Shown: one piece after another, positions 3,606 through 26,989 of the stretch
How the letters are laid out: each line of letters begins with the position of its first letter
Numbering within the stretch: position 1 is the stretch's first letter
Virus record (IMG/VR): IMGVR_UViG_3300044676_007062
Location: 1-31,264 of that record
DNA from: a virus
Lineage: Duplodnaviria > Caudoviricetes
DNA: 31,264 nt
Strand: one strand, 5' to 3'
The notes under the pieces: model-generated
The model's input: the letters and a program-made list of their open reading frames with translations, nothing else
What the model was told of the DNA's origin: nothing
The model's database searches: none
Made by a program: the position numbers and the translations under genes

Positions 3606-3637
3606 CAGAAATGATCATTTAAAATGGAGTTATGAAT

Positions 3638-4201
3638 ATGTTCACTGATCTAATTAAGGGCGCCAAGAAAGGCGCTAACTATGACTATGACATGGAAAAG
3701 GCCAAAGACGAAATCAGCGACGAGCGCCTAGACGAAATTATGGCTGAATTATTTGGCGGCGCCGGTTCAGAAGATGAAGATAAAGAGAAGAAAGCGCCAG
3801 CTAAGAGCAAAAAGGCAAAAAAAGCTATGCCCCGTGCTGATTTGCTTAGAGCAATGAACAAGGGCGCCGATATGGAAGAAGAAGAAGAAGAAGAAGAAGA
3901 AGAAGAAGAAGAAATGGAAATGGAAAAAGGCATGAGTCGCCGTGAAATGATGAATAAAGTATACAGCATGGTTGATGACCTTAGTGACAGCGAGCTTGAT
4001 CAATTTTTGTCGAGTCGTGATATTAAGAAAGCCCAAGCTATGGCGGTCTTTCACCAAATGAGCAACAGCGATCTAAAAGATTTTATGAGCGCTAGCGCTG
4101 CAAACGGTGAGGGGGCCCATGAGTCTATGGGAATGAATAAGGGCGCTGATATGGATGATGAAGCCGGCGCAATGGACAATGTTGACGAGTTTGACGAGTA
4201 A
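3638..4201 (+). CDS. Acidic, Met-rich putative prohead core/internal protein with multiple xxK[AG] motifs
   Basis: GGAG at 3626-3629 favours ATG 3638 (MFTDLIKG). Motifs LIKG, MEKA, MNKG x2, MEKG, IKKA; poly-Glu tract. Confidence 0.6.
   Translation: MFTDLIKGAKKGANYDYDMEKAKDEISDERLDEIMAELFGGAGSEDEDKEKKAPAKSKKAKKAMPRADLLRAMNKGADMEEEEEEEEEEEEEMEMEKGMSRREMMNKVYSMVDDLSDSELDQFLSSRDIKKAQAMAVFHQMSNSDLKDFMSASAANGEGAHESMGMNKGADMDDEAGAMDNVDEFDE
3875..3913 (+). repeat. (GAA)13 trinucleotide run encoding poly-Glu
   Basis: Perfect GAA x13, in frame. Confidence 0.9.
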
Positions 4202-10597: not shown

Positions 10598-11215
10598 ATG
10601 ATGAACCACGACGACCGCCGCCAGCTTCGATCTAATTTACTAGATGAATTAGATACTCCTACACAAACAGCATTACCGACAGACTACCAAGCGCCGGAAC
10701 ACGGCGAAAGAGCGGTAGAGATTGCACTTGAGGAATGGCGACAAAACATTTTAGAGCCTAAAGTAAAAGTCAACACGGGGCCTATTTTGATTAGATACAT
10801 CAGACAAGGGGCGCTTTGGACTTGGGTCAAGGAATATCAAAACAGAAAGTTTGCATGGTGCGGATGCTTTGCGGCGTATGCATGGCGAGAAAGCGTAAGC
10901 GGTGCAACAAGGAAAACATCATTCCCGAGCACTTACAGACTCCAGCAATGGGCTAGGGGGACCAAGCGAGAAATCAGTGGACTAGAGAAAGCCCGTGCGG
11001 GTGATCTTTTAATTGTTGGTAAAAAGAAAGCGTGGGGAGAACATATTACATTGATTGAGCGCATTGAGCCGGACTTAAGCGGGGCTTGGACGGTAGAGGG
11101 GAACGCATGGGGAGAAACCCCCGAGTCAACCCAACGCCAAGAGGGCGTTATCAGGCGCTTCAGATCAGTGGACGAGGTCCATGCGATTTATCGACCTTTG
11201 GAGAGTGATAAATAA
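10598..11215 (+). CDS. CHAP-domain cysteine peptidase (putative endolysin)
   Basis: AWCGCFAAY (catalytic Cys), AGDLLIV, HITLIE (His), TVEGN. Confidence 0.8.
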   Translation: MMNHDDRRQLRSNLLDELDTPTQTALPTDYQAPEHGERAVEIALEEWRQNILEPKVKVNTGPILIRYIRQGALWTWVKEYQNRKFAWCGCFAAYAWRESVSGATRKTSFPSTYRLQQWARGTKREISGLEKARAGDLLIVGKKKAWGEHITLIERIEPDLSGAWTVEGNAWGETPESTQRQEGVIRRFRSVDEVHAIYRPLESDK

Positions 11216-12702
11216 TGAGCGACGACATTAAAAAAACATTTGAGGACTTTGGACTTGTAAAGAGTGCCAAATCAAGAGCCTATGAGCTCAACCCGTATGA
11301 CACAGAGTTTTCAGCAACGCATACCAGCGGACTACTAGACGATACTCACCAAGGTACTACAGGCGGCTTGAGCTATGAAAGTTTAAGAAGCCTAGCAAAA
11401 ATGCCCCTTGTGAGTGCAATCATACAAACAAGAGTAAACCAAGTTGCCGAGTTTGCAAGGCCACAGCCGGACCGATACAGCGCCGGATTTGTGATCAGAC
11501 AGCGGAACCAAGGCGCCGAGATTAGCGACAAGGTAAGAGCTCAAATTGCAGCTTTGCAAGAATGGCTTTTACAGTGCGGTGAGCAAGGCATCACGGGGTT
11601 TAATACATTTGAAAACTTTTTAAGGGCAATTACTAGGGATAGTTTAGTCTTTGATCAATGTTGCTTTGAAGTGATCAATCGAGGGGGGCGCCCCGCCGCA
11701 TTTAAGCCGGTGGACGCCAGCACAATCAGACGAGCGGCCCCGAGTGATGCAGAGATAAAACGAGGGCAGCGAGATCATAAAAAAACGGCCTTTGTACAGG
11801 TGATCAAAAGTAGAGTAGTGGCCGAGTTTGACGAAGACGAAATGTGCTTTGGAGTTAGGCGCCCACGGTCAGAGATAGCCGCCAATGGTTATGGCTACCC
11901 CGAAATGGAAGAAGCCGCCCCGACAATTATTGATATGATCAGAGCCAAGGCGTATAACAGCGCCAATTTTACACACGGCTTACACTTAAGCGGAATACTA
12001 GCAGTAAAAAGCAAAATGAGCCCCGCCCTATTTAGAGCATTTAGGCGGGAGTTTTATGCAATGCTACAAGGACCCAGCGGCGCAAAGAAAACCCCTATCA
12101 TTCAGCTTGACCCCGAAGCGAAAGAAGATGTGAGCTCAGTTAATCTCTCTAATTCAAATAGTGATATGGAATATTCTCAATGGCTCAATTTTTTGATTAA
12201 AGAAGTTTGTGCACTTTATCAAATGGACCCTAGCGAATTAGGGTATGTATTCGGCGCCGAGGGGCAAACAAGCAGTTTGCAGACACAAGGCCCGTCACAA
12301 CGAATCCAATACTCAAAGGAACGGGGACTAAGGCCACTTTTAAGGGCGCTTGAAACATGGATTAACCGGTGGCTTATTTACCCAATAGCGCCACATTTAG
12401 AGTTTAGCTTTGTAGGACTAGACACAGAGACAGAAAGCGCAAGAATTGACGCTATTTCTAAAAAAGTTAAATCTTACATGACAGTAAACGAAGCCCGAGC
12501 CGCCTTTGATCTTGAACCGTTGGAAAACCCGATAGCAGATTATATTCTTGATTCATCATTTATTAACGCCGCTCAAATGGCAGAGCAGCAAGAGGAACCC
12601 GAGGACCAAGAGGAACCCGAGGACCAAGAGGAACCCGAAGACCAAGAGGAACCCGAGGACCAAGAGGGACCCGAGGACCAAGAAATTAATATGGAGTTTT
12701 AA
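11215..12702 (+). CDS. Portal protein (SPO1/Herelleviridae-like)
   Basis: 'SAIIQTRVNQV..FARP', 'RDSLVFDQ', 'PVDASTIR', 'DMEYSQWLNFLIKEVCALYQMDPSELG', 'SKERGLRPLL', 'MTVNEAR'. Confidence 0.92.
   Translation: MSDDIKKTFEDFGLVKSAKSRAYELNPYDTEFSATHTSGLLDDTHQGTTGGLSYESLRSLAKMPLVSAIIQTRVNQVAEFARPQPDRYSAGFVIRQRNQGAEISDKVRAQIAALQEWLLQCGEQGITGFNTFENFLRAITRDSLVFDQCCFEVINRGGRPAAFKPVDASTIRRAAPSDAEIKRGQRDHKKTAFVQVIKSRVVAEFDEDEMCFGVRRPRSEIAANGYGYPEMEEAAPTIIDMIRAKAYNSANFTHGLHLSGILAVKSKMSPALFRAFRREFYAMLQGPSGAKKTPIIQLDPEAKEDVSSVNLSNSNSDMEYSQWLNFLIKEVCALYQMDPSELGYVFGAEGQTSSLQTQGPSQRIQYSKERGLRPLLRALETWINRWLIYPIAPHLEFSFVGLDTETESARIDAISKKVKSYMTVNEARAAFDLEPLENPIADYILDSSFINAAQMAEQQEEPEDQEEPEDQEEPEDQEEPEDQEGPEDQEINMEF
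12589..12683 (+). repeat. 18-bp tandem repeat x5 (CAAGAGGAACCCGAGGAC) encoding (QEEPED)n in the portal C-terminus
   Basis: Five units starting at 12589, 12607, 12625, 12643 and 12661; single mismatches in units 3 and 5. Confidence 0.9.
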
Positions 12703-12704
12703 AA

Positions 12705-15700
12705 ATGAATAAGGGCATTAAATCAAATCAAGATGTACCAATGAGCCGGCGCCGTGCCAAGCTACTTGCGGATTATGCGAATAGACTTGCTGAAATGCTA
12801 GAGAACGCCCCCGACGACAAAGACCTAGCCGAATGGGTACAGAGTAAAATTGACCGAGCGGCTAGCGCTATACAGAGCGCTTATCATTACCTTGAGCATG
12901 ACGAGCTAGAAAAGGGGGCGAGTCATAAATATATTAGGCGTATTCCTAAAGGCCGTGATAAACGAACAGGCCGCATGAGATATGACTATGTATATAAAGA
13001 GCATCATAGGGGCGGGCTAAGAGCAGCCGTTGAAGATTTAAAAGCCGGTGAAGCTTTTAAACTAAAGGACCCGCAAACCGGACAGGCCGGACACTTTCAT
13101 GTAAAAGCTGTTAAGGGTAGTGTAGTTGTAGTTGAGCATGACGAAACGGGGCGTAGCGTCACCATGACAAAGAGCGAGCTCAAAGCTTTGATTATGAAAG
13201 AACATGGTCAGGCGCTTAAAGAAAACTTTCAAGCGAAAAAGGAAACCTATGAGCGCATGAAACGAGACACCCCGAAGCATATCGGGCTTAAAGCGGCGTT
13301 TAATAGACTCCAAGCGGCGGCGGATAAAGCGGGAATTAAATTACCAGCAACGGCAAGAGAGCGCTATGCTAGTTGGTACAAAGAACAAGCAGAAAACCAA
13401 GAGCCAAACAAGGAAGTTGGCGCCTTGATGCGAACACCGGAACCACCGGCACAAGGGCAACATAAACCACTATCACCTAAGTTTTTTGCGGCATATAGAA
13501 GAAAATTAAACACAGACAAAGAAAGATTGCGGCACCTTAAAAACATATACGAACACCCCCATAACCCTAGCCGCTTAAACCGGCCTAATGAGATGACAAC
13601 AGAGCTTTATGCAGAAGTTAAGGCGAATCTTTTAGAGGATATAAAAGAGCTAGAAGACCAAACAGGGGAACATACCTTTAAACAGCCGGCAAACAGTAAA
13701 GAAATATTTACAAGGGTAAAAAGGTTCTTCCCCGAAATAGAAACAATTTACGATAGAGGTATTACCGCAACAATAAAGGTTAAGGCGGGACAGGTTAAAG
13801 GTCTTAAATCAAAATTAATTAAACACCCTACACACCCTATCCAAGTGACAGGCAACTTATTAAGGGGTATACACTTAAGGGACCTTATTGAAATACTTAG
13901 AGGTGAGGAGAACAAGGCCGCATACCAAGCGCAATCTAAAGATAACTTTGAGACTATGCCCGAACCGGTCCAAGAGCCAGCACAAGCGCCACAGCCGCCC
14001 GCCCGTGCTCAGTTAATTGAGACAGCGACACAAGAGCCCGCACAGCCCGCCAAGATTGACAACTTTGAGCTTGCAGAACATACGCACACAAAGACCGGCG
14101 TTAAACTGTACACAGCAAAGCAAAAAGACCGTGTAGACCGTGATGAGTTTAAGCGCCGTGTACAGATAGCTAAGAAGTACAAGGGGCGCTATGACAGCCG
14201 CTATGCAAAAGCATATTTGTTCAAGAACGCAGAAGACGCCCGCAAGTTTGCTTTAGAGGTAGAGGGGAAGTCAACCGACAGCCCAACAACGGCACCGGCG
14301 ACCAATAACTTTGAGACTATGCCAGAGGTTGAAAGTGTAGATAACTTTGAGACTATGCCGGAAACACAAGGCGGCACAGCCCAAAGGCTCAAAGAAGCAC
14401 ATTCATTACTAAAAGAGAGCTCTCAAAAGGATGAAATAAAAAACGGTAGGAGAGCAAGAGCATCAATTAATGCAGACAAAAAGCTTATTGAACATATCCA
14501 AAAGATCATAGACAACGATTTTAAAGACATTGAACACCCCGACTTTACACCATTCCAAGACAGAACACCTAAACAGAATGTTTTAATGGAAATGAGAGGG
14601 TCTTTAAGCCATTTAAAAAATGAACAGAGACTTTTAAGGGGCTCAAGACAAAACCATGAGGATATTCAAAGGGAAAGAAACAAATCGAGAGAAAACTTGA
14701 GAACGGCACTTAATAATCTTGAAAAACTAAGCGCCAGCAACTTTGAGACTATGCCCGAAAGCAAGCTACCGCCGAAAGGTGAAAGAACCGCCGAGGATGC
14801 CAAGAAGTGGTTCGGAGAACCTACCTACTTTGAGACAAAAACACCAATAGGCACAAGAAGATATTTTCAATATGAAAGAGAGGGTCTAAGAGTACGGGGC
14901 GGGCCTATAGGGGCTAATGGTCAACTTTTGTCGGGCACAAGAACAAAGGTATATACATCCATTTTATTGACACCGGAGAATAGACAAAAGATAAGTGGGG
15001 CACAATTCTCTCAGACAGAATTAGGGGAATATAATTCAATAGACGAAGCCCTAAGGGCAGCTATTAATTTCTTTGATAAAGACCCACAAAGTCAGTTTAT
15101 AGGCTATCAAAACAAGGATTTAGAAAGAGACAGACAAAGCGCCGCAAGACGAATGGGCTTAATGGAACAGCGCCAACAGAAAACCCCCGCAAGAGCCGAG
15201 CTTATAGAAGCTAGTGACTTGGTAAGTGACAAAACAGACGGCTTAAAAGGGTCCTATTGGGATAGGAACGAACGCCCCGAAATCAAGCGCTTATTGGATG
15301 AAACAGCCTCAAGAGGGCATTACCAAGCCCGCTTTGAAACGGGGTATACACCAAGCCTATACGACTTAAAGCAAGCAGTACAAAGCGCCGATAAGTTAAA
15401 ATTAGTTGATGCATGGAATCACAACCAAGACACACATAATCGAATTGTAAACTTTGCTGAAAAAGAAGACTTTGCTTCTCTCAAAGCACTATTAAAAGAC
15501 TTTAGAACAGACTACCTTTCTATAATAGCAAGAAACTCTTTACATAACGGGTACGGAAAACTTGCTAAGAGAGTCATTAGAGACAGCAAAACACCAGCAC
15601 ACCGAGAACTAGCAAAGCAAGAATACTTAGATTTTGAAAAAGAGTATGTAGCAAGAGCTAAACAGATCTTTGAAGAAACAAGAACAGAAACCGACGCTGA

Positions 15701-17240
15701 AATAATCCAACACCTAAAAGAGCGCTACTTTAGATACAAAGACCGCCCGTCGGAGTTTAGCACAGCACCGCAGCTAACCACGAGCGAACGGGCTCAAATT
15801 ACAAAGCGCTTTGATGAAGCCGCCGCTAAACTAAGCGCCAATAACTTTGAGACTATGCCGGAGATAAACTTTAGCGAACCCCGCCAAGCTAAAAAAAGAA
15901 AAGTATTCAAAGAAGTGACAGCGGGAGAGTTATATCAAACTAGGGCGCTTATTGACGAGTCCGAAGTGCGGGGCGTTTACGAAGATGAAACACTAGCCAG
16001 CCTAAAAAAGAAGCTAGAGCCCGATAGACTAGCGGCGGAAAGCGGGATAGGAGAGCGAGGGCTATTACAAGGTATAGAGAACACTACCGAAACAAACCCG
16101 CTTGCAAAGGAATATAAAAACTTTCAAGTAAAGACAGCAATTAGCTTTGATCGAAAAAATAAGGCAACTTTAAATGAGAGAGGAAACCCAAGGGGGATTT
16201 CAGATTTCATTAGAGAAAAGTTAAACCTTAACTCTATTGAGAAAGTAAGAGCACAGAAAGAGGAAATTGGAAAAATTGCTAGTGAGTTATTAACACTAGG
16301 CATAGGGGATGCAGTAAAGAGAACAAAAGACACAGCAGCCAAGCGAAAAAACAAAACAGAAGAACGGGCGATAAGCATCTTTGACTATCACATTGAACAA
16401 GCCCAAAACAGACTAGATACTATTAAGGCATCCAATCTAAAAGAAGATGAAAAACTAAAGTCCGGAATAGAGGAAACGATAGAGCTCACCAAGGAAGCAA
16501 AAGAAGTCTACAAGCAGAGAAGCGAAAGCTTACTAAAGGAAGCACTATCTAAAAACAATAACCAAGCTATTATAGACGGCCTATTAGAAAACTCGTCCAC
16601 CCGATTTTATTTTACAATAACGCCCCAAGGCCCAGCAGCAAAAAAACTTACAGAAGCTATTGTCAAGGACACCCTTGAGCAAGTCTTAAAAAACATTGCT
16701 AAAACAAGCCTTGAACCGAACAGGGAGAGCGAACCAGCACCAGCACCACAGCCAGCCGCCAGAGCTCAATTGATTGAAACAACAGACCAAAGCGCCGAAA
16801 GTGCAGCGGTCAGAATTACACCGAGTTTGAGCGAGGAACGATTGACCAATTATTCAAGTGAGCTCAATCCAAGTGAGATAGCGCAGATTTATGACCGGTC
16901 CCGATTCATTACAGTGGCAAAGGAAACCCCGACTAAAACGCTAATGAGATCAAAGAAGCAACGTGCAATCGACAATGAATTAATTCTAATGCACCAGCGC
17001 TTAGATATTCACGCCGGAAAGATTTTAGGCCCGCTAAAGCCACGAGTCACACAGGCCCATAAATATGGTCCAATGTTCAATGAGGGAACAAGAGAGCCGG
17101 AACATAGGGAAAAGATCAGAGCAAAGATTAAGGCGGACATTCAAAAACTATATAGGGCGCTTAACCCCGTGAAGAAAAGCGCACATAGTTTAATTAACTA
17201 CCGTGCAGCGATCTATAAGGCATTGAACGGCGCCGCTTAA
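12705..17240 (+). CDS. Giant modular (polyvalent-type) putative internal virion protein, 1511 aa
   Basis: Leader ending LEKG; N-terminal domain paralogous to 22403; five NFETMPE and three ARAxLIE linkers between unrelated modules; C-terminal VKKS and IYKA. Confidence 0.7.
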   Translation: MNKGIKSNQDVPMSRRRAKLLADYANRLAEMLENAPDDKDLAEWVQSKIDRAASAIQSAYHYLEHDELEKGASHKYIRRIPKGRDKRTGRMRYDYVYKEHHRGGLRAAVEDLKAGEAFKLKDPQTGQAGHFHVKAVKGSVVVVEHDETGRSVTMTKSELKALIMKEHGQALKENFQAKKETYERMKRDTPKHIGLKAAFNRLQAAADKAGIKLPATARERYASWYKEQAENQEPNKEVGALMRTPEPPAQGQHKPLSPKFFAAYRRKLNTDKERLRHLKNIYEHPHNPSRLNRPNEMTTELYAEVKANLLEDIKELEDQTGEHTFKQPANSKEIFTRVKRFFPEIETIYDRGITATIKVKAGQVKGLKSKLIKHPTHPIQVTGNLLRGIHLRDLIEILRGEENKAAYQAQSKDNFETMPEPVQEPAQAPQPPARAQLIETATQEPAQPAKIDNFELAEHTHTKTGVKLYTAKQKDRVDRDEFKRRVQIAKKYKGRYDSRYAKAYLFKNAEDARKFALEVEGKSTDSPTTAPATNNFETMPEVESVDNFETMPETQGGTAQRLKEAHSLLKESSQKDEIKNGRRARASINADKKLIEHIQKIIDNDFKDIEHPDFTPFQDRTPKQNVLMEMRGSLSHLKNEQRLLRGSRQNHEDIQRERNKSRENLRTALNNLEKLSASNFETMPESKLPPKGERTAEDAKKWFGEPTYFETKTPIGTRRYFQYEREGLRVRGGPIGANGQLLSGTRTKVYTSILLTPENRQKISGAQFSQTELGEYNSIDEALRAAINFFDKDPQSQFIGYQNKDLERDRQSAARRMGLMEQRQQKTPARAELIEASDLVSDKTDGLKGSYWDRNERPEIKRLLDETASRGHYQARFETGYTPSLYDLKQAVQSADKLKLVDAWNHNQDTHNRIVNFAEKEDFASLKALLKDFRTDYLSIIARNSLHNGYGKLAKRVIRDSKTPAHRELAKQEYLDFEKEYVARAKQIFEETRTETDAEIIQHLKERYFRYKDRPSEFSTAPQLTTSERAQITKRFDEAAAKLSANNFETMPEINFSEPRQAKKRKVFKEVTAGELYQTRALIDESEVRGVYEDETLASLKKKLEPDRLAAESGIGERGLLQGIENTTETNPLAKEYKNFQVKTAISFDRKNKATLNERGNPRGISDFIREKLNLNSIEKVRAQKEEIGKIASELLTLGIGDAVKRTKDTAAKRKNKTEERAISIFDYHIEQAQNRLDTIKASNLKEDEKLKSGIEETIELTKEAKEVYKQRSESLLKEALSKNNNQAIIDGLLENSSTRFYFTITPQGPAAKKLTEAIVKDTLEQVLKNIAKTSLEPNRESEPAPAPQPAARAQLIETTDQSAESAAVRITPSLSEERLTNYSSELNPSEIAQIYDRSRFITVAKETPTKTLMRSKKQRAIDNELILMHQRLDIHAGKILGPLKPRVTQAHKYGPMFNEGTREPEHREKIRAKIKADIQKLYRALNPVKKSAHSLINYRAAIYKALNGAA
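13944..15859 (+). repeat. Dispersed 17-bp repeat AACTTTGAGACTATGCC (NFETMP), 5 copies
   Basis: Exact copies at 13944, 14307, 14343, 14739 and 15843; partial AACTTTGAG at 14061. Confidence 0.95.
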
Positions 17241-17285
17241 TGTTCTACTCTCATTAACCCTAAAAAGTTATTGAGAGAGGAACCT

Positions 17286-17738
17286 ATGAACCCAAAGCAT
17301 TTAAAAATCAGAATTGAGCAATGTAAGTTGATTGCCAGCGCAAGCCCTTGCGGTCGTCGGAAAGTGGGCGCTTTAATAATAGACCCACAATCGAACACGA
17401 CAATAAGCGAGGGCTACAATGGAACGCCTAGAGGGTCAGATAAGGCGCTTTGTGGCGGCTCATTTTGCCAAAGGGAAGTCAGGTACATTACAAGCGGAAC
17501 ACAGAACGATATAGGCTGCCACCATGCGGAAATGAACGCCATTTTAAACGCTACAAGAACCGGAATATCTACACTTGGCGCTTGGTTAATTGTAAATTGT
17601 GACCCGTGCTTAATGTGTAGCAAGGCGATTCATCACAGCGGGATAGTACAAGTTTACACACCCCTAACAACGCACAGCGCCGGCATAAAATATCTAAGGG
17701 AAAACGGAATAGCAATTTACTCGACACAGGACATTTAA
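17286..17738 (+). CDS. dCMP deaminase (cytidine/deoxycytidylate deaminase family)
   Basis: 'RRKVGALI', 'GYNGTP', HAEMNAI and PCLMC zinc-binding motifs. ATG 17286 follows GAGG. Confidence 0.92.
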   Translation: MNPKHLKIRIEQCKLIASASPCGRRKVGALIIDPQSNTTISEGYNGTPRGSDKALCGGSFCQREVRYITSGTQNDIGCHHAEMNAILNATRTGISTLGAWLIVNCDPCLMCSKAIHHSGIVQVYTPLTTHSAGIKYLRENGIAIYSTQDI

Positions 17739-17786
17739 TGGCATATTGTAAGAAGCCCTAAACTTTAAAAACCGAGAGGGCGAGTT

Positions 17787-19766
17787 ATGATTGACGAGTT
17801 TGTTTATAAGCTCAAATATGCACGATACAATAAAGAAGCACAGCGGCGGGAAGAATGGCCGGAGAGCGTAAAAAGATACATTGAAATGCACCGGAACCGA
17901 TTCCCCTATGAATCAGACCATGGATTGATTGACCCGATAGAAAAGGCAATCTTGAACAAAGAGATTCTACCGTCCATGAGAGGTCTGCAATTTGGCGGGG
18001 CGGGTATTGAGCGAAAGAACATGAGAATGTACAACTGTACAAGCTCGCATTGCGACCGCCCAAGATTCTTTGCAGAAGCGCTTTGGCTTTTATTGTGCGG
18101 GTCCGGCGTAGGATTTTCAGTACAAAAACACCATGTAGCCCAGCTTCCACAGATCAGAGAACCGAAAGAAGACATGGTTTATATTGTGCCGGATTCTATT
18201 GAGGGGTGGGCGGATGCGGTTAATATGTTAATTGGCGCTTTTATGCTGAATGTATGTTATCCGATATTTGATTATTCACAGATCAGACCCGAGGGGGCGC
18301 CCTTATCAGTAGGCGGCAAGGCGCCCGGCCATTTACCACTGAAACAGGCTTTAGAAAACATAGAGCCAATCTTGAGAGGGGCCATAGGGCGCCAGCTAAA
18401 GCCGCTTGAAGCATTTGATATTGTAATGCACCTAGCAAACTGTACAGTGACCGCCGGAACCCGTAGAAGCGCAACAATAGCGTTATTCTCACTTGATGAT
18501 GATGAAATGATGAACGCTAAAACGGGAAATTGGTTTGAGGAACACAGCCACAGAGCAAGAGCCAACATAAGCGCCGTTGTTTTACCAAGTGCACAGGAAC
18601 AGGACTTTAAGCGGCTATTTGAGAGCACAAGGCAATTTGGAGAGCCCGCCTTTTTATTCTTAGAAAGCACAGAACATTGCGTAAATCCTTGTGTAGAAAT
18701 TGTCATGTGCCCTTTGCTGATCAAGGACCCCGAGGGCTACATAGTAGACGACTACACACTAGACCTAATTAATCCAGCAAACAGAACGCTATATGAGGAC
18801 CAAGGCTACACCTTTGAAAGCGGGTGGCAAGTTTGCAACCTAACATCTATAAATGTAAGCAAAGCAGAGACTAAGAGCGACCTTGTAAGGCTTGCCGGAC
18901 TTGCGGCCCAGCTAGGAACATATCAAGCGGATTACACGGACAGCGGCTACCTTGGAGAAGTGAGTCGAGAAATTATTGAGCGTGAAGCATTATTAGGCGT
19001 AAGTTTGTGCGGCGTCCTCTCGAACCCGAACATAGCGCTAGATAAGGAGACCCTAGAAACGGCAGCTTTGACAGCACGGGAACGAAACAAGGCGACGGCC
19101 TTTAGAATTGGTATTAATCCAGCGGCAAGAATCACTTGTGTAAAACCCGAGGGAACAGCAAGCCTTGTCTTGAATACATCTAGCGGCATACATCCGAACC
19201 ATGCAAGAAAATACTTGCGCCGTGTTCAAACAACAACAGGCGAAGAAGTCTTTAATCATTTCAGAGAAACGAACCCGCAAGCCGTAGAAAAAAGCGTATG
19301 GGGGAATGGATATTGTGTAGTGTTCCCTATGGAAGCCGAGGGGCTAACCAAGGCAGACCTAACAGCGATTGAATTACTAGAAACAACCGCACTAATCAAG
19401 CGCCATTGGATTGACCCAACGACAGACAAGAGGTCCCTAGAGGGCGCTAGTCACAATGTAAGTTTAACGGTGACCATTGAGCCCAACGAATGGGAAGCCG
19501 TGGCCGATTATCTTTGGATGAACAGAGAGAAATATACCGGTGTATCTCTTTTAAGCGTCACGGGCGATTATGACTACCCACAAGCGCCACTTGTCGCCGT
19601 ATCTGAAAACGGGCAAACGGACCAAGAAAAAGAAGCTTGGCAGCTATGGCAATCATTGAAAAATACAATGAAAAATGTAGACTATTCAACAATGATTGAA
19701 ACAGTTGATAATACTAGCCCTTTAGAAGCACAAGCGTGTGCGGGGGGCGCTTGTGAGTTAAAATAA
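17787..19766 (+). CDS. nrdJ: Class II (adenosylcobalamin-dependent) ribonucleotide reductase
   Basis: LPSMR, YNC, GSGVGFSV, RRSA, NPCVEI (thiyl Cys), CNL, TCVKPEGTAS and C-terminal CAGGACE. No NrdB gene in the window. Confidence 0.9.
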   Translation: MIDEFVYKLKYARYNKEAQRREEWPESVKRYIEMHRNRFPYESDHGLIDPIEKAILNKEILPSMRGLQFGGAGIERKNMRMYNCTSSHCDRPRFFAEALWLLLCGSGVGFSVQKHHVAQLPQIREPKEDMVYIVPDSIEGWADAVNMLIGAFMLNVCYPIFDYSQIRPEGAPLSVGGKAPGHLPLKQALENIEPILRGAIGRQLKPLEAFDIVMHLANCTVTAGTRRSATIALFSLDDDEMMNAKTGNWFEEHSHRARANISAVVLPSAQEQDFKRLFESTRQFGEPAFLFLESTEHCVNPCVEIVMCPLLIKDPEGYIVDDYTLDLINPANRTLYEDQGYTFESGWQVCNLTSINVSKAETKSDLVRLAGLAAQLGTYQADYTDSGYLGEVSREIIEREALLGVSLCGVLSNPNIALDKETLETAALTARERNKATAFRIGINPAARITCVKPEGTASLVLNTSSGIHPNHARKYLRRVQTTTGEEVFNHFRETNPQAVEKSVWGNGYCVVFPMEAEGLTKADLTAIELLETTALIKRHWIDPTTDKRSLEGASHNVSLTVTIEPNEWEAVADYLWMNREKYTGVSLLSVTGDYDYPQAPLVAVSENGQTDQEKEAWQLWQSLKNTMKNVDYSTMIETVDNTSPLEAQACAGGACELK

Positions 19767-19768
19767 AT

Positions 19769-21733
19769 ATGAGAATAGTCTCGATAGATAGACCGCCCTT
19801 ATTTACAGCACGAAACAAACTTGCTTGGAGTCAAGACTTTGAAACCCTAAAACAGTTAGGCGTTATCAAAGCGCTAGGGCCGCCGCACTTGAGAGACAAG
19901 ACGCTAGATTTATTAGATAGAGCCCAGCGAAAAGAACAGCTAACAATCTCACAAGAAAGCCGGCTGAGTACGATCATTACTAGGCTCACGGATTTATGGT
20001 GTCAATGGACCGACGACGAAAGAGAATTGTTTTTTTATCAATTTTGTGAGGTATCAGAACAGCCGATAATCAGACGGCGGGACATTGAAACGCCAATCCT
20101 TGTCGAGATTCCCCACGGCATGGCAAAAATGAGCCTTAAAGGGTGGACCCCACACATTTACCAGCAAAGGGCCGTGTATTTTGCAACGATCAATAAAAGA
20201 GCTCTATTAGCGCTTGAAATGGGACTTGGTAAGACTTTAATAGCCTTGCTCACATATCACCATTTGAAGCAGCGTAGAGAGCTAAAAAGAACAATTATCA
20301 CAGCGCCTAAAAGCGCCTTTAGCTCATGGCAAGAACACTTAAAACTTAGTGATGCTAATATAGTTATCTTGGAAAACGTGAGCCCCGCAGAAAGAGAAGA
20401 TACCTATACAAAACTTTATCTTGCTCAAATTGACGGCGTAATAATAACACCTCAGACATTTACTAGAGATTTTAAGTATTTTCACAAAATATGTACCGAA
20501 CACAAAACACTATTGATTGCTGATGAAGTACATAAATACAAAGGGACCGGCAAGACCGGCCATGCCTTTGAAGCGGTAAGCGAAAGAGCTTACAGGGTAA
20601 TTGGGCTCACCGGTACACCCAAGCCGAACAAGGTCGAAGATTTTTACAATGTAATAAACAGAATCAAGCCGAATGTACTTGGTACATATCAAGACTTTGC
20701 TAGAGAGTATACTTACAAGGTCTTTGATACATTTATTAGCAATAAGGGCGTACAGTACACGGCGGGGGCGTTAAGGGCCGACAAACTAGACGAGCTCTAT
20801 TTAAGGTTGAAAAATGTTCTGTTTATCAGAGCAGCAACGGACCCCGATTGTAAGCTTGACCTACCCGAGCGGGTGGACTTGGCCCCCTATCTAAAACCGG
20901 ACCAAGGCCAGCTAACCTTAATGAAAGCGCTTATCGAAACGACAGCCGCAAGGGAAATTAACTCTAGCTATTTCAATGAAGCGCTAAATGGAAAGTATGG
21001 TTTTATTCCACAGGTCGCCGCCGAGGGCGCCACGGCCACGGCACAGGCACTAGGGCAGCGAATTGAACAGTTAATGATAACGCCGGCTATATGGTCAGAA
21101 ACATTTAGTAGAGCATATCCCGAATATGAGAGCCCTAAAATTAGAATAATAGCGGACCATGTAAAAAGCTTCTTAGATCAGAGAATAGATAAAGGGGCCG
21201 TGATCTTTTGTGAGTATATAGGCGGGCTTACAGCAATATATCATGCACTAGTCAGGCGGGGCGTACACAGAAACTTAATAGACATATACAGTGGCAGCAG
21301 CACAAAGAAAAGCCGCCACGACATGATAGACCGCTTAAACAGAGGGGAATCAAGAGTCCTAATAGGACAAACCCGTGCACTAGAAACGGGGGCCAATTTA
21401 CAAAGGCGGGCTGCTTATGTGGCTCATTTATCGACACCGTGGGCACCGGACACCTTGACCCAATCAACCGCAAGAGTTTACCGGCAAGGCCAAAAAAACA
21501 AGGTCACAGTATTAAGACCAAGTTGCGGACGGTTAGAGGAAGCCAAAAACAAAGCGCTTACAAGAAAGATCATGCAAAGCGCCAGCCTAACGGGCTTACT
21601 GTTTGATTCAGATAGAGCCGTATTAAACACAAGTGCAGACGACAGAGTAAGACAGGCGCAAGCCGATTTACTAACGACAGGCGCCTATAGTTATAGTATA
21701 ATTCAAAAATTATGCGAGGTAGACTATGAGTAA
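19769..21733 (+). CDS. SNF2-family helicase/ATPase
   Basis: EMGLGKT (I), APKS (Ia), DEVH (II), LTGTP (III), VIFCEY (IV), GANLQ (V), QSTARVYRQGQ (VI). Confidence 0.9.
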   Translation: MRIVSIDRPPLFTARNKLAWSQDFETLKQLGVIKALGPPHLRDKTLDLLDRAQRKEQLTISQESRLSTIITRLTDLWCQWTDDERELFFYQFCEVSEQPIIRRRDIETPILVEIPHGMAKMSLKGWTPHIYQQRAVYFATINKRALLALEMGLGKTLIALLTYHHLKQRRELKRTIITAPKSAFSSWQEHLKLSDANIVILENVSPAEREDTYTKLYLAQIDGVIITPQTFTRDFKYFHKICTEHKTLLIADEVHKYKGTGKTGHAFEAVSERAYRVIGLTGTPKPNKVEDFYNVINRIKPNVLGTYQDFAREYTYKVFDTFISNKGVQYTAGALRADKLDELYLRLKNVLFIRAATDPDCKLDLPERVDLAPYLKPDQGQLTLMKALIETTAAREINSSYFNEALNGKYGFIPQVAAEGATATAQALGQRIEQLMITPAIWSETFSRAYPEYESPKIRIIADHVKSFLDQRIDKGAVIFCEYIGGLTAIYHALVRRGVHRNLIDIYSGSSTKKSRHDMIDRLNRGESRVLIGQTRALETGANLQRRAAYVAHLSTPWAPDTLTQSTARVYRQGQKNKVTVLRPSCGRLEEAKNKALTRKIMQSASLTGLLFDSDRAVLNTSADDRVRQAQADLLTTGAYSYSIIQKLCEVDYE

Positions 21734-22403
21734 TAGATTTATATTTAAGGGACCCAAGGCGGCACTACATGACCCAATTAATCAGTGGGAAATTGTCAGA
21801 CAGGTAATGAGCCAGCAAGGTCCAAGGCGCACCTTTGACATAAAAAAAGGCCGTGGATATGTACTCTTAGAAACCGGCGCAACGATCACAAGCCTTGTTA
21901 ATATGCTGAAATCTCAAGCAGTATCAGCTAAAAAGAAAAAAAAGCGGGGTGGTGAGGTTGACTTGATCAAAGAGCTTGCACAGCAAATGAGTGAGGTCCA
22001 CACACGGCGAATTGATACCATGCTCAAGAGCATTGAGAGCCTACTAGGAGAGCCTATCCAAAAGGGCTACAAACCGCCGGCCAATGTAGCAAGAGCCGCT
22101 CTGAGAGGACTAGAGCTAAGACGCAAGTATGGTCGAGGTGGACTAGATGTAAAACAGGCCGCCAAACATGGAATAGGAAGCGGAGTCCAAAGAGCCGTTA
22201 ATCTGAAAAACCGTGATGAATTGAGCGCCGAAACTGTAAAGCGGATGAAATCATTCTTTGCACGACATAGAAAAAACAAGGACGGCAAAAATGATAAAGG
22301 CGAACCCAGCGCCGGCGCCATAGCTTGGCTTTTATGGGGCGGGGATGCGGGGGACCGGTGGAGTAAAAAAGTTGTAGATCAGATCAATAAAAAGGAAAGC
22401 TAA
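21726..22403 (+). CDS. Head-associated hypothetical protein with conserved 'SAGAIAWLLWGGDAG' module
   Basis: The C-terminal ~110 aa recall a small domain often found in phage head-morphogenesis genes. It is preceded by IFKG, IKKG, MLKS x2 and IQKG motifs. Confidence 0.65.
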   Translation: MSNRFIFKGPKAALHDPINQWEIVRQVMSQQGPRRTFDIKKGRGYVLLETGATITSLVNMLKSQAVSAKKKKKRGGEVDLIKELAQQMSEVHTRRIDTMLKSIESLLGEPIQKGYKPPANVARAALRGLELRRKYGRGGLDVKQAAKHGIGSGVQRAVNLKNRDELSAETVKRMKSFFARHRKNKDGKNDKGEPSAGAIAWLLWGGDAGDRWSKKVVDQINKKES

Positions 22404-25282
22404 TGTTTAACACACTAGATCTATTAAAAGCACAAGTTAAAAAGTATTTTAAAAAGGTCCCCAAGGGGGTAGATAAAAAAACGGGGCGGGTAAAATATAG
22501 ATATTACTACAAAGAGCACCACGGCGGCGGGGTGACAGCCGTTGAGGATTTAAAGGCCGGTGCAGCTTTTAAACTAAAAGACCCCAGCACAGGAAAAGCG
22601 GGCCACTTTCATGTTCAATCAGTTGACGGGGATAAGGTCACAGTAAAGCATGACGGCACCGACAAAGAAGTCACAATGACTAAAGCAGAGTTTAAAGCTT
22701 TGATTATGAGAGAACACGGCCAAGCGTTAAAAGAAACCGCCAAGAAGCGCCGAGAGACTTATGAGAAGATGAAGCGAGAGAACCCCAAGCATATTGGGCT
22801 TAAGGCAGCAAAGAACCGAGTCGAAAAACTAGAACGCATGGCCGGCGTTGAGAAGAAGAAGCCCGAACTAAAAGAAGACCCACGAAAAAAGATCAAGCGC
22901 TTAAAGACTTTTATTGAGTATGCAAACAAAGTCCAACACTTTATTTTAGACAATAAAGCAATGGACCATAAAGGGGCTCAAAGAGCCCTAGACCTCATTA
23001 GTGAGAAGTATCTTAGCGACGACTTTCAAAATATATTTACTATAGATCAAGTCTTAGCAATGAGGCCCCCCGCCCAGAAGATTGACTTAGGAAAAATTAT
23101 AAAGGACACAGAGAAAGAGCTCATTAAAACAGAAAATGAGCTCAAGGCGGAAGCCGTCCAGCAAGAACAAAGCGCCGATAACTTTGAGACTATGCCAGAG
23201 TCAAAAGAGCTCTCGAAAAAAGAAAAGGCTTTAGCTAGTCAAATCGAAGCCAGCGCAAAGAAAAACTTAGATTACTTACAACGCATCATTAAAACAGACA
23301 GGCGAGAATCTAACGAGTATAGATCTAAAAAAGCACTACAAGCGGCCGTAGAAAACATTTTTGATGAAGTAGCAAACCCGTTAGGACTAGATACGGATTA
23401 TCTATACTTTGCTAAGAATACGCCGTTTTTTTTAAATATAGATAAATCTGAAAATGCAGATCTTTTTGACGCCATATATGCGATTTATAACGGTGATACT
23501 AATGCGGAAAATGAAAACCTAGAAGCATATCACAAGATTATCGAGAAACTAGTAGATCATGCCAATATACGCACTAGTGGCGGCGGGACCACGGCAGAAG
23601 AAAGACGCAACTTTAAAAAGTTAAAAAAGCGCTTTAAAGACCAAGAGGACCTTATTTCTAAGAAGCTATTAAAGCCACAAGAACAAAGCGCCGATAACTT
23701 TGAGACTATGCCAGAGTCAAAAGAACCCGCTCAAGAAGTCAAACCAGAACCAGCGCAAGAGCCCAAAATACCGAGCAAGGCAGAGTTGACAGAATTATTG
23801 AGCTCATTAGATGAATTATTGAAAGCCAAGCCCGAGCTAAAAAATGACCCTAGAATCGTTGGTTTGTTAGGTACAGAGAACAAGCCCACAGTAGACACCG
23901 ATAAGCGCAATTCAAAGATCATGCTCACCTTGGACGGCAAGAATCAAAAAGAAAGTGTCACTTATCGAATTGTCGAAGCGGGCGACGCCATAGCATCCCA
24001 CGAGCCGGTAGGATTCAGCAAGCGGGAAGAATATCCCGAGGGCGTACAAGAGCGCAAGTATCATAGTGACAAAGCGGAAATGATGAAAGTGGTCAGAAAT
24101 GCACAATCATTTGACCCCGTTTATCTGATCAATACGAACCCCGACGCCACAAACGGCCCGCCGATCATCACACCCGACGGAATAGTGTTGGGCGGGAATA
24201 GCCGAGTAATGAGCACACAGAGAGTCTATGCGAATCACCCCGAAAGCGCCGCAGCCTATAAAGAATACTTAACAAAGCAAGCGGACACATTTGGATTTAG
24301 CGCCGAAGAAGTCAGCAAGTTTAAGGCGCCTTTATTGGTTCGAGAATATAAGCCAAAGACCGAAACAAAAGATCACCTAGCTAAACTTGTAAGAACCTTA
24401 AATGAGTCTAAGACACAAGGTATTGACGAAAGGCAGCTAGGACTAGCGACAGCCGTTAAGATTCGGGACGGGCGGACACTAGGCGCCTTGAAAATTGCTT
24501 TGAAAGAAAGCGGCTTTGATAATGTAGAAAACCTAATGACCAAGCCAAGCCCAGCGCTGAACAGATTCAAAGAAGCCTTGTTTGCGGACGGTGTACTAAC
24601 CAATGAGAACATGAATGAAATGATTAGAACCCACGACGGTACACTGAACGGGCGGGGCCGTGACTTTATCAAGTCCATGTTAGTCGGATATGTAGTCAGA
24701 GACAGCGACTTGTTAGAGGGGCTATCTATTGGAACAATTAACCACCTATCGACAGCAATTAGCAAGCTTGCCAGCGCCGGTATTAATGAACATACAAGAC
24801 TAGCCATGCAAGACGCTATTGAGATTTATCATCATGCAGTTGGTAGAGATAAGTTAAAGCGAGGGCAAACGCCGCAGCAACGAGACGCACAGATGAATGA
24901 TATAATGTTATCAGAGCAAGAGCTATTTAACACAAAGCCCAAGGAAAATGAAACTATGGAAGAAAGGCGCCAGCGAGAGCAGAGCGCTAGATTTGCAAAG
25001 GCCAAAGCAAGAGTAAGCGCTGACCCCTTGTCTAGCTCATTTTTAAAAATGCTGACACTTAGCGTTGGTACAAAAAAATTAGGACAACAAATGGATATGA
25101 TGCTTAAATTAACAGAAGACACGGGCGTCTTTGATATGTTTGCCGGTAATACTAGAATTAGCTTTGGAGAAGCCGCTAGGAAGCTGTCAAAAGAGCTATC
25201 AGATGAGTTTGGCATAGAAGATAAGCTGTACCAGCTAAAAAAGGCCCTTGATCTTTTAACACTGTTAAAGGCTATTAGATAA
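22403..25282 (+). CDS. Modular putative internal virion protein with DdrB-like ParB domain, 959 aa
   Basis: 'YRIVEA..IASH....YP..VQER.Y...DP..L....DATNGPPII..DGIVLGGNSR' (about 23960-24420) matches the ddrB-like ParB pattern. Leader MFNTLDLLKA, two NFETMPE linkers, C-terminal LKKA and LLKA. Confidence 0.75.
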   Translation: MFNTLDLLKAQVKKYFKKVPKGVDKKTGRVKYRYYYKEHHGGGVTAVEDLKAGAAFKLKDPSTGKAGHFHVQSVDGDKVTVKHDGTDKEVTMTKAEFKALIMREHGQALKETAKKRRETYEKMKRENPKHIGLKAAKNRVEKLERMAGVEKKKPELKEDPRKKIKRLKTFIEYANKVQHFILDNKAMDHKGAQRALDLISEKYLSDDFQNIFTIDQVLAMRPPAQKIDLGKIIKDTEKELIKTENELKAEAVQQEQSADNFETMPESKELSKKEKALASQIEASAKKNLDYLQRIIKTDRRESNEYRSKKALQAAVENIFDEVANPLGLDTDYLYFAKNTPFFLNIDKSENADLFDAIYAIYNGDTNAENENLEAYHKIIEKLVDHANIRTSGGGTTAEERRNFKKLKKRFKDQEDLISKKLLKPQEQSADNFETMPESKEPAQEVKPEPAQEPKIPSKAELTELLSSLDELLKAKPELKNDPRIVGLLGTENKPTVDTDKRNSKIMLTLDGKNQKESVTYRIVEAGDAIASHEPVGFSKREEYPEGVQERKYHSDKAEMMKVVRNAQSFDPVYLINTNPDATNGPPIITPDGIVLGGNSRVMSTQRVYANHPESAAAYKEYLTKQADTFGFSAEEVSKFKAPLLVREYKPKTETKDHLAKLVRTLNESKTQGIDERQLGLATAVKIRDGRTLGALKIALKESGFDNVENLMTKPSPALNRFKEALFADGVLTNENMNEMIRTHDGTLNGRGRDFIKSMLVGYVVRDSDLLEGLSIGTINHLSTAISKLASAGINEHTRLAMQDAIEIYHHAVGRDKLKRGQTPQQRDAQMNDIMLSEQELFNTKPKENETMEERRQREQSARFAKAKARVSADPLSSSFLKMLTLSVGTKKLGQQMDMMLKLTEDTGVFDMFAGNTRISFGEAARKLSKELSDEFGIEDKLYQLKKALDLLTLLKAIR
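23162..23724 (+). repeat. Perfect 47-bp direct repeats (23162-23208 and 23678-23724) containing the 17-bp core
   Basis: CAAGAACAAAGCGCCGATAACTTTGAGACTATGCCAGAGTCAAAAGA occurs twice, 516 bp apart. Confidence 0.95.
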
Positions 25283-25284
25283 CA

Positions 25285-26292
25285 ATGCTATTACTAGACG
25301 CCGAAAGACGAACCCGACAAAGCATTATAGATAGTTATGATGCACTATGTATTGAGCTCTTAGGCGTCAGAGGGGCGGGCCTATCCCAAGAGCGTGTAAG
25401 AGAATTAGTACAGCGGGGACTATTAGACATAGAAAGCTTACATGGCTTCAATGTAAATAGCTCAAGTGAGCCATTAAACCCTATCTTATTTATTAGGCGG
25501 ATAGGGCCAATGTACTCAAGAGCAACGCCACAACAGCGGGCTAGAATGAGAGAATATACCTTGCGCCAATGGCAGCGAGAGTTAAAAGGCTATGAGCCCC
25601 CGCCCGCCGTGCGATATACGCCACCAATGGACCGGCCCACAGCGCCGGAAGTGTTAGAGCCCTTAGAGGGCGCAATTCCAGACAGCTTTGGAACGGCGGA
25701 CAAGACAAGTCTAGTAAGCGCTTTTCAATCAGTAGGCGGCTATATTAGGGGGCTAGGGGCTCGATTTGCAGATGAAGCCAGCGCTATCATGTTTGAGGAA
25801 TGGAACGGCGCTCAAATACTCTCAACACCGGACCCCATAAGGCGGGCCGAAATGCTAGATGTAATTAGAGAGGAAGTAGGCGCCGCCGTATTGACAAAAG
25901 ACACGGCGAAAGAGGTTGCACGGCGAATCAGACAGAGAAGCGGGGACTTAGCCCGTAATTTTGATCGAATAGCCGAAACAGAATTGCAAGCGGTCCATAA
26001 TGAGGGCCAAGTGATGCAAGCGGTAGAAATTGACGGGGACGCCGCAAGAGTGGCAAGAATACCGGAGTCCGGCGCTTGTGGCTATTGCAAGGAAGCTTTT
26101 TTAGGACCCGACGGGCTACCCAAGATTTTTTCAGTTTTAGAATTAATAACAAACGGCGCCAATGTGGGAAGAAAGCGGCGGGCATGGTTGCCAAGCGCCT
26201 ATCCTATGCACCCTAATTGCCGTTGTGATACAATACCGGTAGGACCAAACCAATATGTCACCAAAACGGGGAGAATAAAACGTGTGGATTAA
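25285..26292 (+). CDS. MuF-like (SPP1 gp7-family) minor head protein
   Basis: RIAETE, ACGYC and HPNCRC motifs; located upstream of the protease. Confidence 0.85.
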   Translation: MLLLDAERRTRQSIIDSYDALCIELLGVRGAGLSQERVRELVQRGLLDIESLHGFNVNSSSEPLNPILFIRRIGPMYSRATPQQRARMREYTLRQWQRELKGYEPPPAVRYTPPMDRPTAPEVLEPLEGAIPDSFGTADKTSLVSAFQSVGGYIRGLGARFADEASAIMFEEWNGAQILSTPDPIRRAEMLDVIREEVGAAVLTKDTAKEVARRIRQRSGDLARNFDRIAETELQAVHNEGQVMQAVEIDGDAARVARIPESGACGYCKEAFLGPDGLPKIFSVLELITNGANVGRKRRAWLPSAYPMHPNCRCDTIPVGPNQYVTKTGRIKRVD

Positions 26293-26989
26293 TTTATACA
26301 AAGCAGAGCGCATTGATAGCGCCGAGAATATAGCAAAAATAGCCGGCGTAATTAGTACAGATGAAATTGACTTACAAGGCGAGTCAGTAAAGCAGGACGG
26401 GCTAGACTTTACCTATTTTCTAAAAAAAGGTTGCTTCAACTATGAACATAAAGCCGGCGCTGAAAATATGTTAGGTTACCCAACTAAAGTCAGGCAGCGG
26501 AAAGGCTACACAGAGGTTGAGGGCGTTTTATTGTTAGACAAGCCCAAAGCACAAGATATATATCAAACGGCCCAAGCGCTAAGAAAAGCGGGACGGCAGC
26601 GCACACTAGGATTTAGTATAGAGGGTCAAGTGCTAGAGCGGGATTCAATGAAGCCCCAGCTAGTCACAAAAGCACGGGTCATTAATTGCGCTATAACGTC
26701 AAATCCAATTAACCCGAACACCAGCCTAGAATTGATAAAAAGCATCATGGCGTTAAAAGGGGTAGGTTATCAAACACCGTCCCAAATTGACTCTAATGGT
26801 ATTTCAGCGCTAGTCCCACAACAACTATCGAGTGACCTTGTAAACGCAAGCTCAATAGTAAATAGCGAGTTTAACTTGAGTGACGAGCGTTTAGAACGTA
26901 CAATACGAACACTAAACAAATTATTCCCTAGCGCACCAGCGCCAATGCTTGTGCGTATTTCCAAAAAATTATTAAGTGGAGAGATCTAA
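26282..26989 (+). CDS. Prohead protease (Herelleviridae-like)
   Basis: 'GVISTDEIDLQGESV.QDGLD..YF...G.FNYEH', 'LGFSIEG', 'CAITSNPINP'. GTG start with GGAG upstream. Confidence 0.88.
   Translation: MWINLYKAERIDSAENIAKIAGVISTDEIDLQGESVKQDGLDFTYFLKKGCFNYEHKAGAENMLGYPTKVRQRKGYTEVEGVLLLDKPKAQDIYQTAQALRKAGRQRTLGFSIEGQVLERDSMKPQLVTKARVINCAITSNPINPNTSLELIKSIMALKGVGYQTPSQIDSNGISALVPQQLSSDLVNASSIVNSEFNLSDERLERTIRTLNKLFPSAPAPMLVRISKKLLSGEI

Follow-up and report, generated by a model that had tools for sequence, protein, structure and literature searches.

The complete record IMGVR_UViG_3300044676_007062 of an uncultured virus (Caudoviricetes; 31,264 bases, hereafter the window) carries two giant genes in its head region, encoding proteins of 1,511 and 959 amino acids (aa) (gene 1 and gene 2), and both proteins contain repeated copies of the peptide NFETMPE. 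The motif recurs in giant proteins of other phages and is conserved there at the protein level, it lies in predicted coil between folded modules, and natural crossovers fall at its copies. We consider it highly probable that the motif is maintained as protein and that the modules around it are shuffled through DNA homology. Our best explanation of the whole, at a probability of roughly 55%, is that NFETMPE is a docking peptide in linkers whose repeated DNA serves as a homology patch. The peptide, which is conserved at the protein level and sits in linkers predicted to be flexible, within giant proteins that are likely packaged in the virion, would tie the giants to one conserved partner, while the repeated motif DNA would allow ordinary recombination to delete, swap, and reorder modules in frame. 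Gene conversion or repeated copying would homogenize the copies, and the prohead protease may trim the termini of the giants at lysine sites of the type hydrophobic-x-K[ASG] (K-sites).

Scanning the window confirmed seven exact copies of the 17-mer AACTTTGAGACTATGCC, all on the plus strand, at 13944, 14307, 14343, 14739, and 15843 in gene 1 and at 23180 and 23696 in gene 2 (copies 1 to 7). No additional copy was found in the window at up to three mismatches, and 100 shuffled sequences gave a mean of 0.04 copies (largest, 1). All seven are in frame, at aa 414, 535, 547, 679, and 1047 of the first open reading frame (ORF) and aa 260 and 432 of the second. The Pro and Glu codons of the motif vary as originally described (Pro, CCC/CCA/CCG; Glu, GAA/GAG). 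Four wobble bases identical in seven independent copies would have P = 4e-7 under the codon usage of the window, so the copies are not independent. The further claim that DNA identity stops sharply at 17 bp did not hold up: pairs of window copies (n = 21) share 17 to 47 bases, with 47 identical bases in copies 6 and 7, and 17 bp is the intersection of the seven copies. In the nearest relative, at least 19 bases are common to all seven copies. The expected placement at module joints was borne out in structure models (mean pLDDT of 69 and 58, with parts of gene 1 poorly modelled), where 7 of 7 copies fall in predicted coil with pLDDT below 50 between folded blocks, low pLDDT not being proof of disorder throughout. 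Alignments of relatives together with these models show modules that fold separately and are distributed separately.

The exact 17-mer was found in two close relatives, with seven and five copies, and as scattered single copies, and a codon-degenerate scan for the motif returned 81 loci. Before codons were counted, 3 near-duplicate giants were left out, as were 13 short ORFs in which NFETMP occurs by chance (8 near-identical proteins of 423 aa, plus 5 more). The remaining 89 copies are distributed over 43 contigs, nearly all in giant ORFs, in genes with a GC content at third codon positions (GC3) of 0.21 to 0.90. Outside the lineage of the window, 70 copies (40 contigs; exact 17-mer in 8) use 21 DNA words for the motif. 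Mixed words occur in 11 of the 20 multi-copy contigs, the other 9 being homogeneous, and the GC content of the motif wobble positions tracks GC3 of the gene (rho = 0.68, n = 43). The degenerate scan held the peptide fixed by design, and protein searches were therefore used as a check. Searching 1.84 billion representatives with a 32-column linker profile yielded 51 clusters at E ≤ 0.001, and in an alignment of 17 gene 1 sequences the seven motif residues are the only invariant columns. Variants with F/W and E/D substitutions and others (NWETMP, NFDTMP, and NFQTMP) occur, and for 4 of 8 DNA matches to NWETMP the reading frame stays open throughout the 620 bases retrieved. The consensus comprises eight residues, [DN]N[FW][ED]TMP[ED]. 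Selection appears to act on this peptide and not on a DNA word, because the motif is written in 21 words, its wobble positions follow GC3, its residues show variants, and it is invariant across lineages.

The carriers come from no fewer than three phage lineages, with 18 to 31% identity between their capsid proteins, and at 42 of 50 motif loci the flank retrieved contains homologs of the head or packaging genes of the window. A genome collection of cellular genomes gave 9 matches, made up of 3 phage-like giant ORFs and 6 unrelated frames, with no recurrent cellular protein. The motif thus appears to be phage specific. Motif-bearing phage-like contigs in archaeal and Patescibacteria bins (L102, L103, and L106) are probably mis-binned phage DNA. 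In the literature searched, whose coverage left out most subscription journals, no mention of NFETMP was found.

Within contigs, motif copies agree in their N, F, E, T, and P codons more often than codon usage would predict (within genomes, N 0.83 versus 0.59, T 0.61 versus 0.34, P 0.53 versus 0.32). The flanks of the motif are also homogenized genome by genome, with QEQSA in the window and KKEAKS in a relative, and the tracts common to copies reach about 50 bases with variable ends. These patterns suggest that gene conversion or repeated copying has homogenized the copies; this would be the reason for the invariant 17-mer in the lineage of the window.

Loss, gain, and reordering of modules with breaks at the motif, as proposed in the original prediction, were seen both in relatives and in a wild population. 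The module order is N-A-B-C-D-E-F-G in the window and N-A'-B-F-D-E-G in contig L005, whose DNA homology blocks start or end at motif copies, one of them exactly at the first base. One of the L005 copies combines the left flank of copy 14343 (90%) with the right flank of copy 15843 (70%). P0020, P0021, and P0022 have lost the gene 2 slot that precedes copy 7 or carry other sequence in its place. Wild variants were surveyed in the assembled contigs of 4 of the 20 runs with matching sequence, and rare forms are dropped in such contigs. In run X5, position 14340 is joined to 15841 in one contig, whose shorter side is 51 bases long and whose depth is 61.1 versus 11.4 for the full form, and coverage is 11.4 across 14605-15486 versus 70 to 88 on the flanks. 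This deletion of 1,500 bp is in frame and lies inside 22 shared bases. An assembly artifact was rejected, as the full arrangement is bridged by zero-difference contigs from X1 (12725-16082), X5 (14237-15891), and X2 (14724-15859) and is present in an independent relative. In run X6, a contig of 1,348 bases diverges at 23712, where copy 7 ends. No back-joint (circle) between motif copies was found among the contigs of the four runs, where rare forms drop out. All motif copies are direct repeats, so deletion or exchange is expected and not inversion.

Across 48 motif-bearing homologs, a homology break is found no more than 20 aa away from 54 of the 75 copies, versus 18 under a uniform null and 38 under a disorder null (largest of 1000, 52), a count that X-masking of the motif may itself inflate by favoring alignment ends there. 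Of all homology breaks, 77/374 are near the motif and 297/374 away from it. A second linker motif (ARAQLIET in the window, TPREQLTETAR in relatives) is widespread in the giants of the lineage; its three window copies are synonymously diverged, yet they also mark breakpoints. The nearest relative has a 127-aa insertion at this second motif and not at NFETMPE, and exchanges between the paralogous N termini of the giants were seen in three of the four runs. Because most breaks lie elsewhere, including at the second motif and the paralogous N termini, NFETMPE is one preferred joint among several. The two giants are themselves related, with an N-terminal domain in common (62% identity over about 145 aa), for which searches with the gene 2 copy gave only weak SH3/Tudor/KOW-like fold matches (E ≥ 0.55). 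The basic aromatic hairpin of this domain (12903-13040 and 22418-22530) is swapped between the giant genes in relatives and in three of the four runs, and other lineages have different hairpins after the K-site.

Besides the possible masking effect, several points weigh against the proposed model. Residue variants of the motif come only from the protein searches, as the degenerate scan could not return them. In the lineage of the window, 15 bases are the same in 19 of 19 copies despite 9 to 42% synonymous change elsewhere. Under independent neutral drift this identity has a P of about 0.02 for the nearest relative and 6e-4 for the rearranged relative, so only conversion or copying saves a neutral reading of the DNA. 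The Glu codon of the motif is GAG above expectation after clustering (z = 3.4 with 25 clusters, 3.1 with 20, and 1.8 with 9), and neighboring-codon context does not account for the excess. A deficit of ACA in the motif likewise persists after clustering and is not accounted for by this context. The motif is missing in 69 of 114 gene 2 homologs (P0023-P0040 all lack it), and because so many gene 2 orthologs do without it, it is dispensable for the single protein. The deletion in X5 is known from one contig in one run and was not found in the other three. Finally, among the 9 matches in the genome collection, there was no cellular protein with the same peptide that could be a model for mimicry.

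Given a motif kept as protein and shuffling driven by homology, we lean toward docking over cutting as the function of the peptide. Long conservation on both sides, an aromatic anchor, acidic flanks, and the spacing of close motif pairs, which is always 12 to 13 aa, fit a docking motif for an oligomeric partner. As the motif stays fixed while the capsids diverge, a partner that evolves slowly and is encountered during ejection or afterward is preferred to the capsid wall, and we favor a conserved host protein as the putative partner.

The strongest alternative, though an unlikely one, is that NFETMPE is the cleavage site of a second protease, of phage or host origin, which frees domains in the head or after ejection, with shuffling as a by-product. 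Copies at domain joints in coil would suit such a protease, and x-x-E-T is found in both linker motifs. There is also precedent, as the passages of PMC5512222 on processing describe P1 DdrB as processed and propose peptidase release of domains for polyvalent proteins. An embedded zincin MPTase is present in about 36% of polyvalent proteins and is not required of them. However, the HExxH pattern of such peptidases was found in neither giant and in none of 19 window proteins checked, a scan that did not extend to the HExxxH variant. Conservation extends over 7 to 8 residues and to either side of any cut, paired sites at a constant 12 to 13 aa would be pointless for cutting, and the motif is absent from most breakpoints, all of which also argues against cleavage. 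Moreover, the scaffold and the termini of the giants carry another pattern, of the K type. The scaffold has 8 K-sites in 193 aa, and others lie in the protease, the capsid N terminus, and the ends of gene 1, with none in gene 1 aa 155-1488, whereas none of the scaffold, capsid, portal, protease, and minor head protein contains NFETMP. HK97-type proteases cleave on the C-terminal side of Lys, and hydrophobic-x-K[ASG] is presumably the site code of the head protease, separate from NFETMPE. NFETMPE as a site of the prohead protease itself was disfavored, as the structural proteins lack the motif and are enriched in the K-type pattern instead. In seven records, among ORFs uncut by retrieval limits, the motif is found in seven giants and one 255-aa protein.

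Rather improbable is that NFETMPE acts as a handle for loading cargo, attaching to the inner capsid wall, the portal, or the minor head protein during assembly. Encapsulin targeting peptides are an analog for such a handle, and it would agree with a multivalent motif of fixed tandem spacing that is confined to phages of one broad capsid family. P1 offers a parallel in that DdrB aids the addition of DarB to the capsid (PMC9024508). However, the motif is unchanged across capsids of 18 to 31% identity and was not found in the retrieved head regions of LE1, LinZ_10, and Dolphis, which belong to the same capsid family. The capsid wall is also less likely as the partner because many orthologs with the same N-terminal domain lack the motif.

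The original prediction saw in the 17 bp a DNA-level core of an integron-like system within an ORF, recognized by a dedicated or host recombinase. We consider this very improbable. Integrons use IntI and attC, and shufflons use Rci and sfx. Short repeats at cassette joints are a likeness to both, and the products of shufflons keep the reading frame, as here. Furthermore, the 17 bp are the same in all 19 copies from three related genomes, crossovers map to the 17-mer, and the residual GAG excess would suit a DNA site. On the other hand, the 21 words among 70 copies, mixed words in 11 of 20 genomes, variable tract ends, and the F/W substitution leave no family-wide fixed core, and the synonymously diverged second motif and the paralogous N termini also mark breakpoints. 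In contrast to the palindromic attC, NFETMPE copies offer no palindromic site: six copies folded as RNA share no fold, and among the 25 longest inverted repeats none is at a copy. Integrons and shufflons have a cognate recombinase, whereas none was found among the window ORFs scanned, as the original prediction had noted, and neither PF00589 (tyrosine recombinase) nor PF00239 (serine recombinase) was found in G002 (98% complete, three copies), G003 (100%, three copies), and G006 (87%, four copies; the nearest large record, from the lineage of the window). These were the three multi-copy records of the five scanned; the other two, G001 and G005, each have one tyrosine recombinase 35 to 44 kb from a single motif. 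Genes for a family A polymerase, a PD-(D/E)XK nuclease, and a VRR-NUC protein are present in G006, and short-homology recombination would be carried out by such replication and repair functions or by the host. Of the original prediction, the placement of the motif in linkers stands, yet its codons are synonymously diverged, its residues change conservatively, and many breakpoints lie elsewhere, which speaks against a fixed DNA junction.

A neutral, recently copied linker without function, or an internal translation start, is the least credible explanation: it would agree with homogeneous copies in 9 of 20 genomes and with the absence of the motif from many orthologs, but the former is largely refuted by conservation of the peptide in three lineages and over the whole GC3 range, and the latter, which the original prediction had listed as an alternative for the embedded ATG, is ruled out by Shine-Dalgarno energies, with none at usable spacing from the motif Met (mean of +0.4 kcal/mol, compared with -6.0 at 21 gene starts and -1.5 at 80 internal Met codons elsewhere).

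Among known systems, the giants most resemble the polyvalent proteins (Iyer et al. 2017, PMC5512222), large multidomain proteins encoded beside virion genes. Disparate domains are joined in the giants, their genes lie among the late virion genes of a terminase-portal phage, and gene 2, unlike gene 1, has a DdrB-like ParB domain (PF18763, E = 2.7e-20). Of 30 motif-bearing relatives, 17 have a Pfam match, several of them to domains of the polyvalent set; ART-PolyVal, InPase, RadC, DarA_C, LPD25, SNF2, or methylase domains are found among them. PMC5512222 accounts for the polyvalent architecture by accretion and not by in-frame crossover guided by repeats; the word "linker" does not appear in its main text, and its passages on motifs mention no such peptide. 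PeSL cassettes of the T4-type phages RB49 and phi1 are also similar, as far as the consulted part of PMC2839356 describes them: repeats kept for another function excise or insert modules by homologous recombination, with no dedicated recombinase shown, and T4 recombination needs under 50 bp. They differ in that PeSLs are intergenic promoter/stem-loop sequences of about 100 bp that move whole genes, whereas the NFETMPE repeat is 17 to 47 bp of coding DNA, in frame inside ORFs, apparently selected as peptide, and moves domains. The P1 Dar system (DdrB, DarA, and DarB) is a case of head-incorporated cargo, with DarB targeted by its N-terminal 30 residues, but the portion of PMC9024508 used here describes no internal repeated motif, and P1 has a capsid lineage different from that of the window phage. 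Gene 2 matches P1 DdrB over aa 505-654 (27% identity, E = 3e-5). Packaging and ejection of the giants would follow from gene context, the DdrB-like ParB domain, and the terminal K-sites.

Coordinates of the features are given in Table 1. The window encodes a terminase, portal, minor head protein, prohead protease, probable scaffold, and major capsid protein, the last with best cultured matches of about 25% identity. Gene 1 has no Pfam or PHROG family at threshold, and its product is likely packaged cargo. Gene 2 has a variable module slot (about aa 151-431), the ParB domain (aa 515-650), and a helical tail. In cultured phages, gene 1 matches solely over 71 aa, in Thalassomonas phage BA3, and gene 2 matches are confined to the ParB domain. 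Fold searches with the structure models of both giants gave nothing at E ≤ 0.001, and the ESM Atlas had no usable match for the tandem motif or module B. Of 21 listed runs, 8 contain at least half of the sampled words of gene 1; they are estuary, marine, marsh, and seawater metagenomes. The genome-collection scan gave no informative prophage for host assignment.

Table 1. Giant genes, linker motifs, and neighboring head genes in the window
Feature	Position	Strand	Remarks
Portal	11215..12702	+	PF04860, E = 6e-24
Giant gene 1, 1511 aa	12705..17240	+	Directly downstream of portal; N-terminal head-type domain and modules A-G
N-terminal domain, gene 1 copy	12903..13337	+	Hydrophobic-x-K[ASG] site, basic aromatic hairpin, small beta-barrel, helix
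Motif copy 1, DNFETMPE (aa 413-420)	13944..13960	+	Joint A/B; coil, pLDDT<50
Second motif copy 1, PARAQLIET	13998..14030	+	Accompanies NFETMPE copy 1
Motif copy 2, NNFETMPE	14307..14323	+	First of tandem pair 12 aa apart
Modules C-D-E, 500 codons	14341..15840	+	Missing in frame in dominant variant of run X5
Motif copy 3, DNFETMPE	14343..14359	+	Left crossover of natural deletion and of the B-to-F junction of the relative
Motif copy 4, SNFETMPE	14739..14755	+	Joint C/D; homology with rearranged relative begins exactly here
Second motif copy 2, PARAELIEA	15186..15218	+	Joint D/E
Motif copy 5, NNFETMPE	15843..15859	+	Joint E/F; right crossover of natural deletion
Second motif copy 3, AARAQLIET	16755..16787	+	Joint F/G; 127-aa insertion site in nearest relative
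Giant gene 2, 959 aa	22403..25282	+	Upstream of minor head gene; N-terminal domain common with gene 1
N-terminal domain, gene 2 copy	22418..22852	+	Same domain as gene 1
Motif copy 6 (17-mer at 23180)	23162..23208	+	Within 47-bp exact repeat
Motif copy 7 (17-mer at 23696)	23678..23724	+	Within second 47-bp repeat; right edge of variable slot
Minor head protein	25285..26292	+	phrog_115, E = 1e-11
Prohead protease	26282..26989	+	phrog_1028, E = 2e-44
Probable scaffold, 193 aa	26989..27570	+	Between protease and capsid genes; many hydrophobic-x-K[ASG] sites; no NFETMP
Major capsid protein	27581..29032	+	phrog_752, E = 2e-65; distantly Herelleviridae-like

Several further features of the head module were noticed. 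Between the giant genes (17271-21733) lie genes for a dCMP deaminase, a class II ribonucleotide reductase, and an SNF2 helicase, in an order largely kept across the lineage. Two small genes (3632-4201 and 21726-22403) have many K-sites and likely encode further head-internal proteins. The C terminus of the portal (12571-12701) is an 18-bp tandem repeat coding for (QEEPED)n, where a relative has (DQE)n. Between portal and gene 1, a third cargo gene of about 1200 to 1250 aa (L012:13400-17152, minus strand) is present in the two close relatives and missing from the window; it encodes the N-terminal domain and an SNF2-like helicase, without NFETMP. Gene 1 of both close relatives has an extra 80-aa N-terminal extension. 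Near the C terminus of gene 2 (aa 903-909, VFDMFAG, about 25110-25130), DMF[GA] is kept in the family consensus, and we take it to resemble a sliding-clamp binding motif.

On a broader and doubtful view, a myovirus clade would inject scaffold-like cargo with a two-word docking code (NFETMPE and PREQLTETAR) that grips one universally conserved host machine, the same words being the recombination joints. If so, new effector domains would plug in, in frame, already wired to the target, and the GAG bias would be a weak DNA-level tuning of the joint. For mosaic polyvalent proteins, our results suggest a concrete route, in which a linker peptide kept by selection provides homology in the correct frame; one wild population was caught segregating for a form that has lost three modules. 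By analogy with PeSL shuffling, the working principle appears to be the same, and what is new is that it operates inside one reading frame. The eight-residue motif, unchanged across lineages with capsids only 18 to 31% identical, is a precise and undescribed probe with which the putative partner may be found without phage culture.

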